A stretch of DNA of 64,000 nt from Octopus vulgaris. Lineage: Eukaryota. Of the stretch, positions 28,111-50,797 are shown in pieces. Position 1 is the first letter of the stretch, and each line of letters begins with the position of its first letter. The notes beneath the pieces were generated by a model. The model saw only the letters and a list, made by a program, of their open reading frames with translations, was not told the DNA's origin and did not search any database. Position numbers and translations under genes: made by a program. Location: the NCBI GenBank assembly GCA_951406725.2, contig OX597833.1:21266001-21330000 (forward strand), given 5' to 3'.

Positions 28111-28389
28111 AGAGTATTTATTTTTCATAATAATAAAGACGATAATTTTCTTTTGGTTTTACTTTGCTTATATTTATAGCTAAATTTCGTTTTTAAAGAA
28201 CTGGGATTATTCGATCGATCGGTTTAATATTTCTCAATCCATGAGCCGATATTAATCCATCCATTTTCTGACACGCGCAACATCAATTCAAAGATTTAAG
28301 TTTAAAGAACGAATATCTTATCTCTGATTAAAGACACAGCAAACATTTGTGGCTTGTATGAACAGTAATAATAACAATGATTTCTTTAT

Positions 28390-28445
<56 letters not shown>

Positions 28446-28462
28446 TGATGATGATGATGATG

Positions 28463-29455
<993 letters not shown>

Positions 29456-30054: not shown

Positions 30055-30485
30055 ATTAGTTTCAGATTTTAGCGCAAGACCAGCAATTTCGGCGGATGGG
30101 TAAGTCAGTTACATCGACCTCAGTGTCTAACTGGTACTTACTTTATCGATCCTGAAAGGGTAAAAGGTAAAGACGACCTCTCGGAATTTGAACTCAGAAC
30201 ATAAAAACAGACGAAATGCCACAAAGCATTTTGCCCGACGAGCTAACGATTCTGCTAGCGCTCCACCATTAGTCAATAATATTGGTTTCAAATTTTGGCA
30301 CAAAGCCAACAGAGGGGGCAAGTCGATTACATCGACGCCGGTGCTCAACTGGTACTTTATTTTATCGACCCTCGAAAGAATGAAAAGCAAAGTCGACTTT
30401 GACAGAATTTCAACTCAGAAGATAGAGACGGACGAAATACCGCTACACATTTTGTCCGGCATGCTAACGATTTCGTTAGTGCGCC
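30055..30485 (-). mobile_element. Two SINE family A copies
   Basis: Reverse complement of family A. Confidence 0.75.
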
Positions 30486-30771
30486 ATTATCAGTCAATAT
30501 TATTAACTGATTTCTTACGAAAGACGTTGTTAGTCAGTTCAGAGGAACCACCCTTTGGTGTATAGTGGTAAAGAGAACTAAAGAATTCGAAATGCATTAA
30601 ATAGTCCAATAGCGGACGCTCTGAGCTGACTAAGGTGTTATGATATATATATATCACCGTGATCACCGTGACCGACCAGGCTATCAGATGTTGCTACACA
30701 TTGCTGGTCACAATGCGCTTAGCATTGTTTTAGCCTTAAAATGATGCCACCCCGCTGGCTAAGCGAGCAGG

Positions 30772-35327: not shown

Positions 35328-36120
35328 AAGGCGGCGTGCTGGCAGAAACGTTAGCACGCCGGGCGAAATGCGTAGCCGTATTTCGTCTGCCGTTACGTTC
35401 TGAGTTCAAATTCCGCCGAGGTCGACTTTGCCTTTCATCCTTTCGGGGTCGATAAATTAAGTACCAGTTACGCACTGGAGTCGATGTAATCGACTTAATC
35501 CGTTTATCTGTACTTGTTGGTCCTCTCTTTATTTAGCTCCTTGTGGGTAATAAAGAAACAGGTATTTCGTCCGCCGCTGTGTTCTGAGTTCAAATTCTGC
35601 CGAGGTCAACTTTGCCTTTCATCCTTTCGGAGTCTATTAAATAAGTACCAGTTACGCATTGGGGTCGATATAATCGAATTAATCCCTTTGTCTGTCCTTG
35701 TTTGTCCTCTCTGTGTTTAGCCCCTTGTGGGTAGTAAAGAAACAGGTATTTCATACGTCTCTATATTCTGGGTTCAAATTCCGCCGGAGTCTGCTTTGCT
35801 TTTCATCTTTTCGATGAATACTAGGTTCGGTATAAGCGACTTAGCACCCCCTCCCACTAAATTGCTGGCCTTGTGCCAAAATTTGAAAGTAATATTACTC
35901 GGATATACGGTGGCGTGTTGGCGGAATCGTTAGCGCGTCGGATAAAATGCTTTGCAGAAATGCTTCCGGTTCTTTACGCTCTGAGTTCAAACACGGGCGA
36001 AGTCGTTATTGTCTTTCATATTTGAATAAAATAAGTACCAACTGAACACTGGGGTCGATGTAATCGTTTAGCCCCTTCCCACAACATTTCAGACCTTGTG
36101 CCTATAACAGAAAGAAGTAG
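35328..36120 (+). mobile_element. Cluster of tandem SINE family A copies
   Basis: Four consecutive family A modules. Confidence 0.85.
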
Positions 36121-44124: not shown

Positions 44125-47100
44125 AATTCTCCCTGGGCAAATAAATTATCTTTATTGCTGAAAAGAAAGAAACTGCAGTCTGAGAATTACCGGTTTAGTA
44201 AATGTTTTTATCTTCATTTCACTTAATTTATCAAGCTTCTGTATTCCTAGCACATATTTCGCCTTAATGTACTGATATATGAAAAATATATGGCTTGTGT
44301 TAGTAATACCAGCGATTATAATTATTTTTATTTTATCGCAATTTGATTTGTTTACTTATTTCTCGATAAATTATGAGCGCCAGGCGATATACCAGAATTC
44401 CCTAGTGTTGTCGGGACGTTCGGAGTCTGCGCAGTGATATGATTAGTTAGGGAGAGTAATTCATTAGACGCACATGCTTCGAGTGAGTTAGGATCCCAGA
44501 AAAACAGGGTCTCACTGAAGAATTCTCCCTGGGCAAATAAATTATCTTTATTGCTGAAAAGAAAGAAACTGCAGTCTGAGAATTACCGGTTTAGTAAATG
44601 TTTTTATCTTCATTTCACTTAATTTATCAAGCTTCTGTATTCCTAGCACATATTTCGCCTTAATGTACTGATATATGAAAAATATATGGCTTGTGTTAGT
44701 AATACCAGCGATTATAATTATTTTTATTTTATCGCAATTTGATTTGTTTACTTATTTCTCGATAAATTATGAGCGCCAGGCGATATACCAGAATTCCCTA
44801 GTGTTGTCGGGACGTTCGGAGTCTGCGCAGTGATATGATTAGTTAGGGAGAGTAATTCATTAGACGCACATGCTTCTAGTGAGTTAGGATCCCAGAAAAA
44901 CAGGGTCTCACTGAAGAATTCTCCCTGGGCAAATAAATTATCTTTATTGCTGAAAAGAAAGAAACTGCAGTCTGAGAATTACCGGTTTAGTAAATGTTTT
45001 TATCTTCATTTCACTTAATTTATCAAGCTTCTGTATTCCTAGCACATATTTCGCCTTAATGTACTGATATATGAAAAATATATGGCTTGTGTTAGTAATA
45101 CCAGCGATTATAATTATTTTTATTTTATCGCAATTTGATTTGTTTACTTATTTCTCGATAAATTATGAGCGCCAGGCGATATACCAGAATTCCCTAGTGT
45201 TGTCGGGACGTTCGGAGTCTGCGCAGTGATATGATTAGTTAGGGAGAGTAATTCATTAGACGCACATGCTTCTAGTGAGTTAGGATCCCAGAAAAACAGG
45301 GTCTCACTGAAGAATTCTCCCTGGGCAAATAAATTATCTTTATTGCTGAAAAGAAAGAAACTGCAGTCTGAGAATTACCGGTTTAGTAAATGTTTTTATC
45401 TTCATTTCACTTAATTTATCAAGCTTCTGTATTCCTAGCACATATTTCGCCTTAATGTACTGATATATGAAAAATATATGGCTTGTGTTAGTAATACCAG
45501 CGATTATAATTATTTTTATTTTATCGCAATTTGATTTGTTTACTTATTTCTCGATAAATTATGAGCGCCAGGCGATATACCAGAATTCCCTAGTGTTGTC
45601 GGGACGTTCGGAGTCTGCGCAGTGATATGATTAGTTAGGGAGAGTAATTCATTAGACGCACATGCTTCTAGTGAGTTAGGATCCCAGAAAAACAGGGTCT
45701 CACTGAAGAATTCTCCCTGGGCAAATAAATTATCTTTATTGCTGAAAAGAAAGAAACTGCAGTCTGAGAATTACCGGTTTAGTAAATGTTTTTATCTTCA
45801 TTTCACTTAATTTATCAAGCTTCTGTATTCCTAGCACATATTTCGCCTTAATGTACTGATATATGAAAAATATATGGCTTGTGTTAGTAATACCAGCGAT
45901 TATAATTATTTTTATTTTATCGCAATTTGATTTGTTTACTTATTTCTCGATAAATTATGAGCGCCAGGCGATATACCAGAATTCCCTAGTGTTGTCGGGA
46001 CGTTCGGAGTCTGCGCAGTGATATGATTAGTTAGGGAGAGTAATTCATTAGACGCACATGCTTCTAGTGAGTTAGGATCCCAGAAAAACAGGGTCTCACT
46101 GAAGAATTCTCCTGGGCAAATAAATTATCTTTATTGCTGAAAAGAAAGAAACTGCAGTCTGAGAATTACCGGTTTAGTAAATGTTTTTATCTTCATTTCA
46201 CTTAATTTATCAAGCTTCTGTATTCCTAGCACATATTTCGCCTTAATGTACTGATATATGAAAAATATATGGCTTGTGTTAGTAATACCAGCGATTATAA
46301 TTATTTTTATTTTATCGCAATTTGATTTGTTTACTTATTTCTCGATAAATTATGAGCGCCAGGCGATATACCAGAATTCCTAGTGTTGTCGGGACGTTCG
46401 GAGTCTGCGCAGTGATATGATTAGTTAGGGAGAGTAATTCATTAGACGCACATGCTTCGAGTGAGTTAGGATCCCAGAAAAACAGGGTCTCACTGAAGAA
46501 TTCTCCCTGGGCAAATAAATTATCTTTATTGCTGAAAAGAAAGAAACTGCAGTCTGAGAATTACCGGTTTAGTAAATGTTTTTATCTTCATTTCACTTAA
46601 TTTATCAAGCTTCTGTATTCCTAGCACATATTTCGCCTTAATGTACTGATATATGAAAAATATATGGCTTGTGTTAGTAATACCAGCGATTATAATTATT
46701 TTTATTTTATCGCAATTTGATTTGTTTAATTATTTCTCGATAAATTATGAGCGCCAGGCGATATACCAGAATTCCCTAGTGTTGTCGGGACGTTCGGAGT
46801 CTGCGCAGTGATATGATTAGTTAGGGAGAGTAATTCATTAGACGCACATGCTTCTAGTGAGTTAGGATCCCAGAAAAACAGGGTCTCACTGAAGAATTCT
46901 CCCTGGGCAAATAAATTATCTTTATTGCTGAAAAGAAAGAAACTGCAGTCTGAGAATTACCGGTTTAGTAAATGTTTTTATCTTCATTTCACTTAATTTA
47001 TCAAGCTTCTGTATTCCTAGCACATATTTCGCCTTAATGTACTGATATATGAAAAATATATGGCTTGTGTTAGTAATACCAGCGATTATAATTATTTTTA

Positions 47101-47911
47101 TTTTATCGCAATTTGATTTGTTTACTTATTTCTCGATAAATTATGAGCGCCAGGCGATATACCAGAATTCCCTAGTGTTGTCGGGACGTTCGGAGTCTGC
47201 GCAGTGATATGATTAGTTAGGGAGAGTAATTCATTAGACGCACATGCTTCTAGTGAGTTAGGATCCCAGAAAAACAGGGTCTCACTGAAGAATTCTCCCT
47301 GGGCAAATAAATTATCTTTATTGCTGAAAAGAAAGAAACTGCAGTCTGAGAATTACCGGTTTAGTAAATGTTTTTATCTTCATTTCACTTAATTTATCAA
47401 GCTTCTGTATTCCTAGCACATATTTCGCCTTAATGTACTGATATATGAAAAATATATGGCTTGTGTTAGTAATACCAGCGATTATAATTATTTTTATTTT
47501 ATCGCAATTTGATTTGTTTACTTATTTCTCGATAAATTATGAGCGCCAGGCGATATACCAGAATTCCCTAGTGTTGTCGGGACGTTCGGAGTCTGCGCAG
47601 TGATATGATTAGTTAGGGAGAGTAATTCATTAGACGCACATGCTTCTAGTGAGTTAGGATCCCAGAAAAACAGGGTCTCACTGAAGAATTCTCCCTGGGC
47701 AAATAAATTATCTTTATTGCTGAAAAGAAAGAAACTGCAGTCTGAGAATTACCGGTTTAGTAAATGTTTTTATCTTCATTTCACTTAATTTATCAAGCTT
47801 CTGTATTCCTAGCACATATTTCGCCTTAATGTACTGATATATGAAAAATATATGGCTTGTGTTAGTAATACCAGCGATTATAATTATTTTTATTTTATCG
47901 CAATTTGATTT

Positions 47912-47916
<5 letters not shown>
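44125..47916 (+). repeat. 396-bp tandem array (~9.6 near-identical units), each with a hammerhead ribozyme; non-LTR retrozyme-like element
   Basis: Unit starts (AATTCTCC..) at 44125, 44521, 44917, 45313, 45709, 46105, 46499, 46895, 47291, 47687; very few differences between units; flanked by TA repeats. Confidence 0.9.
44510..44581 (+). ncRNA. Type I hammerhead ribozyme, first of 9 complete copies in the array
   Basis: TCTCA-CTGAAGA-A-TTCT...AGAA-A-GAAA-CTGCAGT-C-TGAGA: canonical core, 5-bp helix I, helix II with apical GCAAATAAA/TTTATTGC hairpin, palindromic ACTGCAGT helix III, GUC site at 44576. Confidence 0.85.
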
Positions 47917-50678: not shown

Positions 50679-50797
50679 GTTTAAGGCCATATCACTTTGA
50701 AAACACCGGTTCTCAACCGATCACCGAAGTTAAGCAACGTCGATCCTAGTTAGAACTTAGATGGGTGACCGCTTGGGAAACCTAGGTGCTGTAAACT
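50679..50797 (+). pseudogene. Solitary divergent 5S rRNA copy (pseudogene or variant)
   Basis: GTTTAAGGCCATATCAC..CCGATCACCGAAGTTAAGC..GTTAGAACTTAGATGGGTGACCGCTTGGGAA..GTGCTGTAAAC; full length (~119 nt), not in an array, no clean T4 terminator. Confidence 0.85.

Follow-up and report, generated by a model that had tools for sequence, protein, structure and literature searches.

A predicted hairpin upstream of the hammerhead ribozyme in a tandem retrozyme-like array of Octopus vulgaris and its bearing on a proposed antisense switch

The tandem array and its family

The window analyzed in this work is a stretch of 64,000 nucleotides from the Octopus vulgaris genome (contig OX597833.1), which contains on its forward strand a tandem array of 9.6 units of 396 bp that are 99% alike and flanked by TA repeats (Table 1). 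The array has a GC content of 0.34, and no open frame of at least 150 aa overlaps it. A hammerhead motif is found at the end of every unit. The initial annotation had regarded the unit as that of a hammerhead retrozyme, an assignment borne out by the motif in nine full units and by the dispersed copies described below. The array is 5'-truncated, and its 3' end falls at the family's fixed unit position 174, in a TA microsatellite. Unit positions are counted from the base after the predicted cut; for the first full unit the window coordinate equals the unit position plus 44180.

Table 1. Features of the array, given for its first full unit, and other features of the window (window coordinates, unit positions in brackets)
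Feature	Coordinates	Strand	Remarks
Tandem array	44125-47916	+	
Purine strand with two possible partners	44447-44455	+	44494-44497 (compensated, all subfamilies) or 44524-44532 (predicted to dominate, subfamily I only)
Upstream hairpin, self-contained	44450-44497 (270-317)	+	basal helix 44450-44453 with 44494-44497
Inner stem of the hairpin	44457-44468 with 44479-44490	+	contains the 10-nt OFF1 arm
Private T-to-G change	44481 (also 46459)	+	breaks the pair with 44466
CAGGG and CCCTG	44505-44509 (325-329); 44527-44531 (347-351)	+	complementary to each other
Helix I, 5' strand	44510-44514 (330-334)	+	pairs with 44577-44581; compensated
Core CUGANGA	44515-44521 (335-341)	+	CUGAAGA in the window; N7 is 44519
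Helix II	44522-44564	+	43 nt; A.A at base; stem 44523-44526 with 44560-44563; internal loop; apical hairpin 44532-44555
GAAA, helix III, GUC	44565-44576	+	helix III of 2 bp from the 8-nt palindrome 44568-44575; predicted cut after 44576
Helix I, 3' strand	44577-44581	+	first bases of the next unit
Open frame, 288 aa	10892-11758	-	
Isolated hammerhead-like motifs	12411; 48163	+	by pattern scan; may be chance
Open frame	28328-28858	+	terminal cysteine-histidine motif; end presumably like the C-terminus of a non-LTR retrotransposon protein
Short tandem copies	30098-30504; 35378-35813		221-bp and 184-bp units; seemingly parts of one interspersed repeat
5S rRNA copy	50679-50797	+	93.6 bits

The family 3' end joined to a TA repeat occurs in 187 exact copies in the genome (control 0), and two partly overlapping exact hammerhead patterns, whose overlap lies in subfamily II, have 140 and 131 matches (controls 0). 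Among the 78 loci examined, 67 have their 3' end at unit positions 169-175 and 9 more end at 179-199, with the alignment extending into the TA repeat; the 5' ends vary, and none of the 78 carries an inverted second arm within the flanks fetched. Divergence within the family is small, the copies being 88-100% alike, and three subfamilies are distinguished: subfamily I, to which the window's array belongs, subfamily II (~94% alike to I) and subfamily III (~88-92%). Judged by its sequence, the array is a young, non-coding non-LTR retrozyme with a type I hammerhead. The family fits the metazoan non-LTR retrozymes, as described in excerpts of PMC7229834, by unit size, type I hammerhead, low GC and dispersal, and the shape of its insertions matches that of Penelope-like elements (excerpts of PMC11167929 and of the preprint 10.64898/2026.07.22.740005).

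Subfamily III, which accounts for 46 of 100 sampled insertions (the first 100 of the 187 listed exact 3' ends), is characterized by the core CCGAUGA, which carries the U4C change, by a helix I that is both extended and compensated, and in most cases by C at position 11.1. Insertions shorter than 75 nt make up 40 of the same 100 (loci L143-L216). At several 5' junctions a short stretch of the element is duplicated, as re-priming would produce. An array of ~28 units (L089-L090, G000:C5, ~112.64-112.65 Mb) has mosaic variants common to non-adjacent units. Further hammerhead families occur in the genome (L061, L062, L064, L065; L070, L071, L074; L069), one with a helix II of ~65 nt. An old sister retrozyme family of ~480 bp (L059, L060, L115-L142; 1534 candidates, copies 77-87% alike to L059) has a homologous hammerhead, 65% alike over the ribozyme, and an unrelated upstream part; its profile match spans only the hammerhead and ~25 nt behind it. 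In this family, too, the helix II base is A.A and helix III has a palindrome, the centre of which is swapped.

In the window the Rfam search scored no hammerhead, the gathering score not being reached, and helix II is much longer than in Rfam's 45-position hammerhead model; the RF00163 profile search of the genome yielded six loci, all unrelated to the family. At window positions 44980-44999, runs X1 and X6 gave three contigs with the hammerhead followed by unrelated sequence, which may be other insertions, another family or chimeras; contigs also showed a variant of helix II, and a pattern made for it matched nothing in the genome. A 396-base go-back joint was present in contigs of all four runs (type guessed), and was left unused because tandem DNA and a circle both give one. 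Elsewhere in the window, the 288-aa open frame has Atlas matches of 0.91-0.94 to clusters with PF26215, some with GIY-YIG, and no significant match in Pfam or PDB; we take it to resemble the C-terminal half of a Penelope-like element reverse transcriptase with the endonuclease linker.

The hammerhead and the hairpin upstream of it

The structural comparison is based on an alignment of 51 rows, 50 of them distinct. Each locus whose upstream sequence was long enough contributed its last hammerhead, after identical segments had been collapsed; one locus with an internal deletion (L104) was excluded, and two window units were added. The type I elements CUGANGA, GAAA, UH and helices I-III are present in order, and the helices are 95-100% paired in 50 rows. 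Helix I position 333-2 is C-G in 34 rows, U-A in 13 and G.U in 3, a compensated change. The only freely variable core position is N7, where all four bases occur. The pair G10.1-C11.1 is absent: of 158 units, 156 have A at position 10.1, whereas at 11.1 there are 132 with A, 24 with C and 2 with T. The helix III palindrome is nearly invariant across the family units.

The CAGGG and CCCUG strands, located on stems I and II, each begin 5-6 bases away from the core and can pair in 99.2% of the cells in 50 rows, with no compensated change. Pseudoknots between stems I and II are common in hammerheads (excerpts of PMC3088659), and the two strands are a candidate for such a contact. In the isolated motif, positions 44514-44517 can pair with 44572-44575, joining the start of the core to the palindrome's 3' half. 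No other fold of the motif by itself has a lower predicted energy, and in a lone ribozyme it would amount to an intrinsic misfold.

The segment upstream of the ribozyme is predicted to fold on its own. RNAalifold pairs positions 270-273 with 314-317, the base of a hairpin, rather than with the helix II strand proposed earlier as their partner (OFF2, see below). The pair 271-316 (44451-44496) is G-C in 88, A-U in 65, G.U in 3 and other in 2 of the 158 units from 75 loci. Both this exchange and the helix I change correspond to one tree event each, with G.U intermediates; since each compensated pair is thus a single event in a young family, the covariation support is thin. Segment 267-317 self-folds at z-scores of -4.6 to -6.7 in all five members folded. 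The inner stem has a predicted probability of ~1.0 in units with T at 44481 (T units) and ~0.9 in those with G (G units), and of at least 0.83 in 50/50 locus monomers, 15 of which were rotated from copies of ~1.4 units. Forcing the hammerhead in the unit of the window yields the same hairpin, and the combined fold of hairpin and hammerhead has 97.9% of cells paired and 2 of 39 pairs compensated.

Complementarity to the ribozyme and predicted folds

The initial annotation had proposed that strands upstream of the ribozyme constitute a built-in antisense switch, which would hold each monomer or circle in a ribozyme-off conformation and protect the circular RNA from re-cleavage. Its first pairing (OFF1, unit 297-307 with 331-340) exists as described: CTTC[N]AGTGAG at 44477-44487 and 44511-44520 form 10 standard pairs when 44481 is omitted. 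The second (OFF2, unit 267-275 with 344-352) is present as nine pairs between 44447-44455 and 44524-44532, seven Watson-Crick and two G.U. Its target was called a helix II strand, which holds for the TCT of TCTCCCTGG, located in the basal stem, and fails for CCCTG, which is in the internal loop. The strands of the supposed apex, GATCC/GGGTC, are also there, but GGGTC (44507-44511) shares C44511 with the 10-bp OFF1 target, so the two cannot be complete together. The substitution was observed correctly, two of the nine full units having G (44481, 46459) and the remaining seven T, whereas the reading of this base as a bulge does not agree with the predicted fold, in which 44481 pairs with A44466 at a probability of 1.0 in T units. 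Across the family, position 301 (44481) is T in 156 of 158 units, both Gs being in the window's array (1 of 75 loci), and the G weakens the inner stem from -12.8 to -8.2 kcal/mol, a loss of 4.6. Variants common to non-adjacent units are ordinary in the family's long arrays (L089, L055); a five-unit higher-order repeat behind the G in units 1 and 6 was considered and rejected, the other variants having no five-unit period.

Shuffling the unit body 1000 times gave a match to the OFF1 duplex (-12.5 kcal/mol) in 27 cases and to the OFF2 duplex (-15.2 kcal/mol) in 3; after correction for the choice among nine hammerhead segments, the P values become 0.12 and 0.015, respectively. Both pairings are at chance (0.10-0.33) in one member each of subfamilies II and III, and an equally good partner exists for 21 of the 384 12-nt windows of the monomer. 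We also considered a conserved antisense arm in the sister family and rejected it: its weak upstream complement, at -9.2 kcal/mol in five of the 14 copies and between -4.5 and -12.5 over all of them, is inside the shuffle range of the window unit, and helix I is predicted to be free in 3 of 4 folds. In the literature searched, mostly open-access, we found no report of a cephalopod retrozyme or of such an antisense switch.

Folding predictions place the OFF1 arm in the hairpin. In the circular monomer the local stem 278-288 with 299-309 takes up the arm at ~1.0. The probability of OFF1 is 0.00 for T units and between 0.02 and 0.06 for G units, and forcing it costs 7.4 and 3.1 kcal/mol, respectively; its pairing with the core is at most 0.09 in 50/50 locus monomers, and both arms together have a predicted probability of ~3e-7 (T) or ~3e-4 (G). 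In nascent-chain prefixes OFF1 is 0.00 in 7/7 for the T unit; for the G unit it is at most 0.04 in 6/7 and 0.26 in the longest. The 86-nt fragment on which the switch was drawn prefers the hairpin by 3.6 kcal/mol in the G unit and 8.2 in the T unit. When 44458-44470 (278-290) is deleted in silico, OFF1 forms, at 0.95-1.0 for 8 of 10 pairs; the arm is latent because 281-290 resembles 332-340. Both arms and the apex strand are contained in one hairpin, a structure compatible with the active ribozyme.

OFF2 behaves differently in the model. It is predicted at 0.69-1.0 in 22/24 subfamily I monomers and at no more than 0.22 in 26/26 others, and is incompatible with the active hammerhead fold; if the pseudoknot contact is real, OFF2 would compete for its CCCUG target. 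Helix I occupancy is 0.48-0.55 in five monomers without OFF2 (L036, L040, L044, L047, L054) and 0.16 in L043, which has it. The hammerhead fold costs 9.8-12.2 kcal/mol in six members of subfamily I, 7.1-9.2 in six of subfamily II (counting L043) and 5.1-8.4 in five of subfamily III, in a model that ignores pseudoknots and tertiary contacts.

The ribozyme-off prediction that RNAfold gives in circular mode proved uninformative. Adopting the hammerhead fold costs the real circle 9.8 kcal/mol and 120 circles with shuffled bodies 11.4 +/- 3.1, and the isolated motif already costs 7.6; since shuffled bodies disfavour the hammerhead no less, an "off" prediction from the model is no sign of a switch. 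Removal in silico of the whole upstream arm (44447-44487, unit 267-307), expected to relieve the ribozyme, leaves the cost unchanged at 9.4, and removal of 44447-44455 alone gives 11.0. The core is unpaired in the minimum-energy circle at 37 C.

Comparison across copies likewise gave the proposed fold no backing, with 92.7% of cells paired and 0 of 23 pairs compensated. The broken pairs are U298-339 in 31/49 rows, G271-C348 in 29/50 and A302-336 in 13/50; the partner of U298 is the freely varying N7, and the base at 271 that breaks OFF2 is compensated in another helix, the hairpin base. At the level of sequence comparison we regard as demonstrated the family with its subfamilies, the compensation found in helix I and at the base of the hairpin, and the breaks in the proposed fold that no second change restores. 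In subfamily I, OFF2 probably arose incidentally, when A-U was exchanged for G-C at the base of the hairpin. A stepwise gain of complementarity toward subfamily I was rejected as a separate signal, since with an unrooted tree and a match picked in subfamily I such gain cannot be told from decay elsewhere.

Cut sites, competing readings and known systems

Helix III is predicted to be unstable as a hairpin (+2.2 kcal/mol) and stable as a duplex of two palindromes (-12.5). In a tandem stretch, the inner site costs 7.1 kcal/mol as a double hammerhead versus 10.4 in the lone fold, a gain of 3.3, and both sites cost 13.4 versus 19.9. The double-hammerhead arrangement is thought to permit the cutting of multimers and avoid that of monomeric circles (excerpts of PMC4209133). 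Many invertebrate type I hammerheads are reported to cut well as monomers (excerpts of PMC7761336), and a coral hammerhead cuts at 0.8/min (excerpts of PMC7229834).

The length of an insertion reflects the cut sites that were open in the RNA from which it was copied. Among the first 100 of the 187 listed exact 3' ends, 49 of the 56 insertions that reach the last cut site run past it. In the same sample, stops within 50 nt, counted in length windows picked after viewing the data, occur in 8 of 22 insertions at the next site and 8 of 57 at the last, a borderline difference (Fisher p 0.057); against a 10% background, p is 0.0009 for the next site and 0.21 for the last. An overlapping sample of 50 loci has 12 of 27 near the second site. 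A lone circle should stop copying equally at both passes, and we infer that a two-ribozyme transcript cut only upstream would give the observed pattern. Protein assistance would be an alternative with an equal outcome, by analogy with the element PAc, in which copying has a fixed internal start and an AT-rich target, the hammerhead is protein-assisted, and uncut RNA is the main template (excerpts of PMC11167929).

Stops at the last site, again among the first 100 of 187 listed, are found in 6 of 20 subfamily I insertions and 1 of 36 of subfamilies II and III (p 0.006), a contrast confounded by the U4C core of subfamily III, of which 23/23 run through; against subfamily II alone (1 of 13), p is 0.20. 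Subfamily I, the only one with intact arms, thus stops more at the cut site, the opposite of what an off-switch predicts. The arm, moreover, lies 30-70 nt upstream in every precursor unit as well, so it presumably could not distinguish a circle from a precursor.

On this evidence, we consider it probable that 44450-44497 is the 5' flank of the ribozyme, likely a hairpin that keeps the core-complementary strand off the ribozyme, and that cutting is limited by the ribozyme itself. The hairpin is predicted to form before the core is transcribed and to remain formed. The ribozyme would limit its own cutting through a 2-bp palindromic helix III that is unstable alone; neighbouring units would pair and supply each other's helix III, so tandem transcripts would cut, and a lone ribozyme (in the last unit, a monomer or a circle) would mostly remain uncut. 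A Penelope-type protein, which perhaps aids folding, would then copy the RNA from the fixed internal point into TA repeats. Circle protection, if there is any, more likely comes from the weak palindromic helix III favouring paired ribozymes, i.e. the published design. Against this interpretation stand the monomeric cutting reported for many invertebrate type I hammerheads, the thin covariation, the borderline contrast between the two cut sites, and the model's preference for OFF2 in subfamily I, where the ribozyme is disfavoured by 2-4 kcal/mol more than in II and III.

That last observation is the starting point of a reading which we think unlikely, namely that in subfamily I only, 44447-44455 moves to 44524-44532, opens the helix II base and the candidate pseudoknot, and lowers cutting, with the OFF1 arm uninvolved. 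The distribution of OFF2 among subfamilies, its P of 0.015 and the low helix I occupancy in L043 would all agree with such damping. Yet it depends on one base that is explained by compensation elsewhere, the removal of 44447-44455 does not cut the hammerhead cost, subfamily I insertions in the first 100 of 187 listed stop at the cut site more and not less, and the folding model is blind to pseudoknots and tertiary contacts. A reading that we hold to be somewhat less likely again is a caged toggle in the youngest subfamily, in which the hairpin hides two ribozyme-invading strands, one stripping the CAGGG/CCCUG pseudoknot and one covering the core, until the cage is opened by a protein, by an edit or by the change of a single base, and cutting stops. 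If true, such a toggle would explain concretely how the circles of animal retrozymes avoid being cut again, and nature would already have supplied an on/off series in the form of the three subfamilies.

It is improbable, in our estimation, that the ribozyme is nearly dead or strictly protein-assisted, with no circle formed, arrays arising by read-through of uncut multimers and later expansion, and no protection needed. The A.A (A.C in most of subfamily III) in place of G10.1-C11.1, the U4C core and complete read-through of subfamily III insertions in the sample, the mosaic variants in long arrays, and the failure of 8/9 Xenopus dimers to cut (excerpts of the preprint 10.64898/2026.07.22.740005) point in this direction, but helix I is compensated, only N7 varies freely in the core, and among the first 100 of 187 listed 3' ends the 5' ends accumulate at the second cut site. 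The switch as originally proposed, a selected rod made of both arms and the apex that would protect the circle by sequestering helix I, the core and helix II, is very improbable: its pairings exist and beat most shuffles in subfamily I, OFF1 forms once the caging strand is removed, and plant retrozymes are predicted to work so (excerpts of PMC4918200), but none of its pairs is compensated and three are broken in 26-63% of rows, the joint probability of the arms is negligible, the "bulge" is a paired T in nearly all units, the broken-arm subfamilies II and III have spread to 131 exact motifs versus 140 for the overlapping other pattern, and last-site stops in the sampled insertions are rarer in them.

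The excerpts of PMC7229834 leave open how circles avoid re-cleavage, and a true antisense switch would have answered this for one family. The family data argue against a switch and toward the published dimer design. What remains useful is a natural test series, of three subfamilies that differ at a few bases deciding between rival folds, together with the candidate pseudoknot and the insertion lengths.

Among known systems, Poseidon PAc of the green anole (excerpts of PMC11167929) resembles the window family in the fixed internal start of copying, the AT-rich target, and templates mostly uncut at the hammerhead; it differs in that the window element codes for nothing and has no inverted second arm in 78/78 loci within the flanks fetched. 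The plant LTR retrozymes and hammerhead viroids (excerpts of PMC4918200 and PMC7229834) share with the window unit a ribozyme-complementary sequence within the unit, but plant retrozymes have type III hammerheads and LTRs, whereas the window element is type I and without an LTR. Moreover, the blocked plant and viroid ribozymes are predicted to have the greater part of the motif paired within a long, stable hairpin. In the window unit, by contrast, the main arm is predicted to be held in a hairpin of its own, the lowest-energy circle leaves the core unpaired, and the family does not conserve the match. The metazoan non-LTR retrozymes of coral, mussel (350-390 bp) and axolotl (Rtz_353), described in the excerpts of PMC7229834, are like the window's element in being low-GC, non-coding, dispersed tandem units of similar size with one type I hammerhead each, and most of their circles, some mussel ones excepted, are predicted there to leave the ribozyme free. 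The axolotl HHR_Amex2 of the same source has, like the window hammerhead, a 2-bp helix III with a tetraloop and a mismatch at the helix II base; the window element differs from this group in its 43-nt helix II with an internal loop and in the candidate stem I-stem II pseudoknot. Compared with the double hammerheads of the newt satellite, ASBVd and Penelope pLTRs (excerpts of PMC4209133 and PMC3088659), the window family lacks G10.1-C11.1, and its presumed dependence on dimers is computed and deduced from insertion lengths; with them it shares the short palindromic helix III, the tandem arrangement and the predicted gain from two units.
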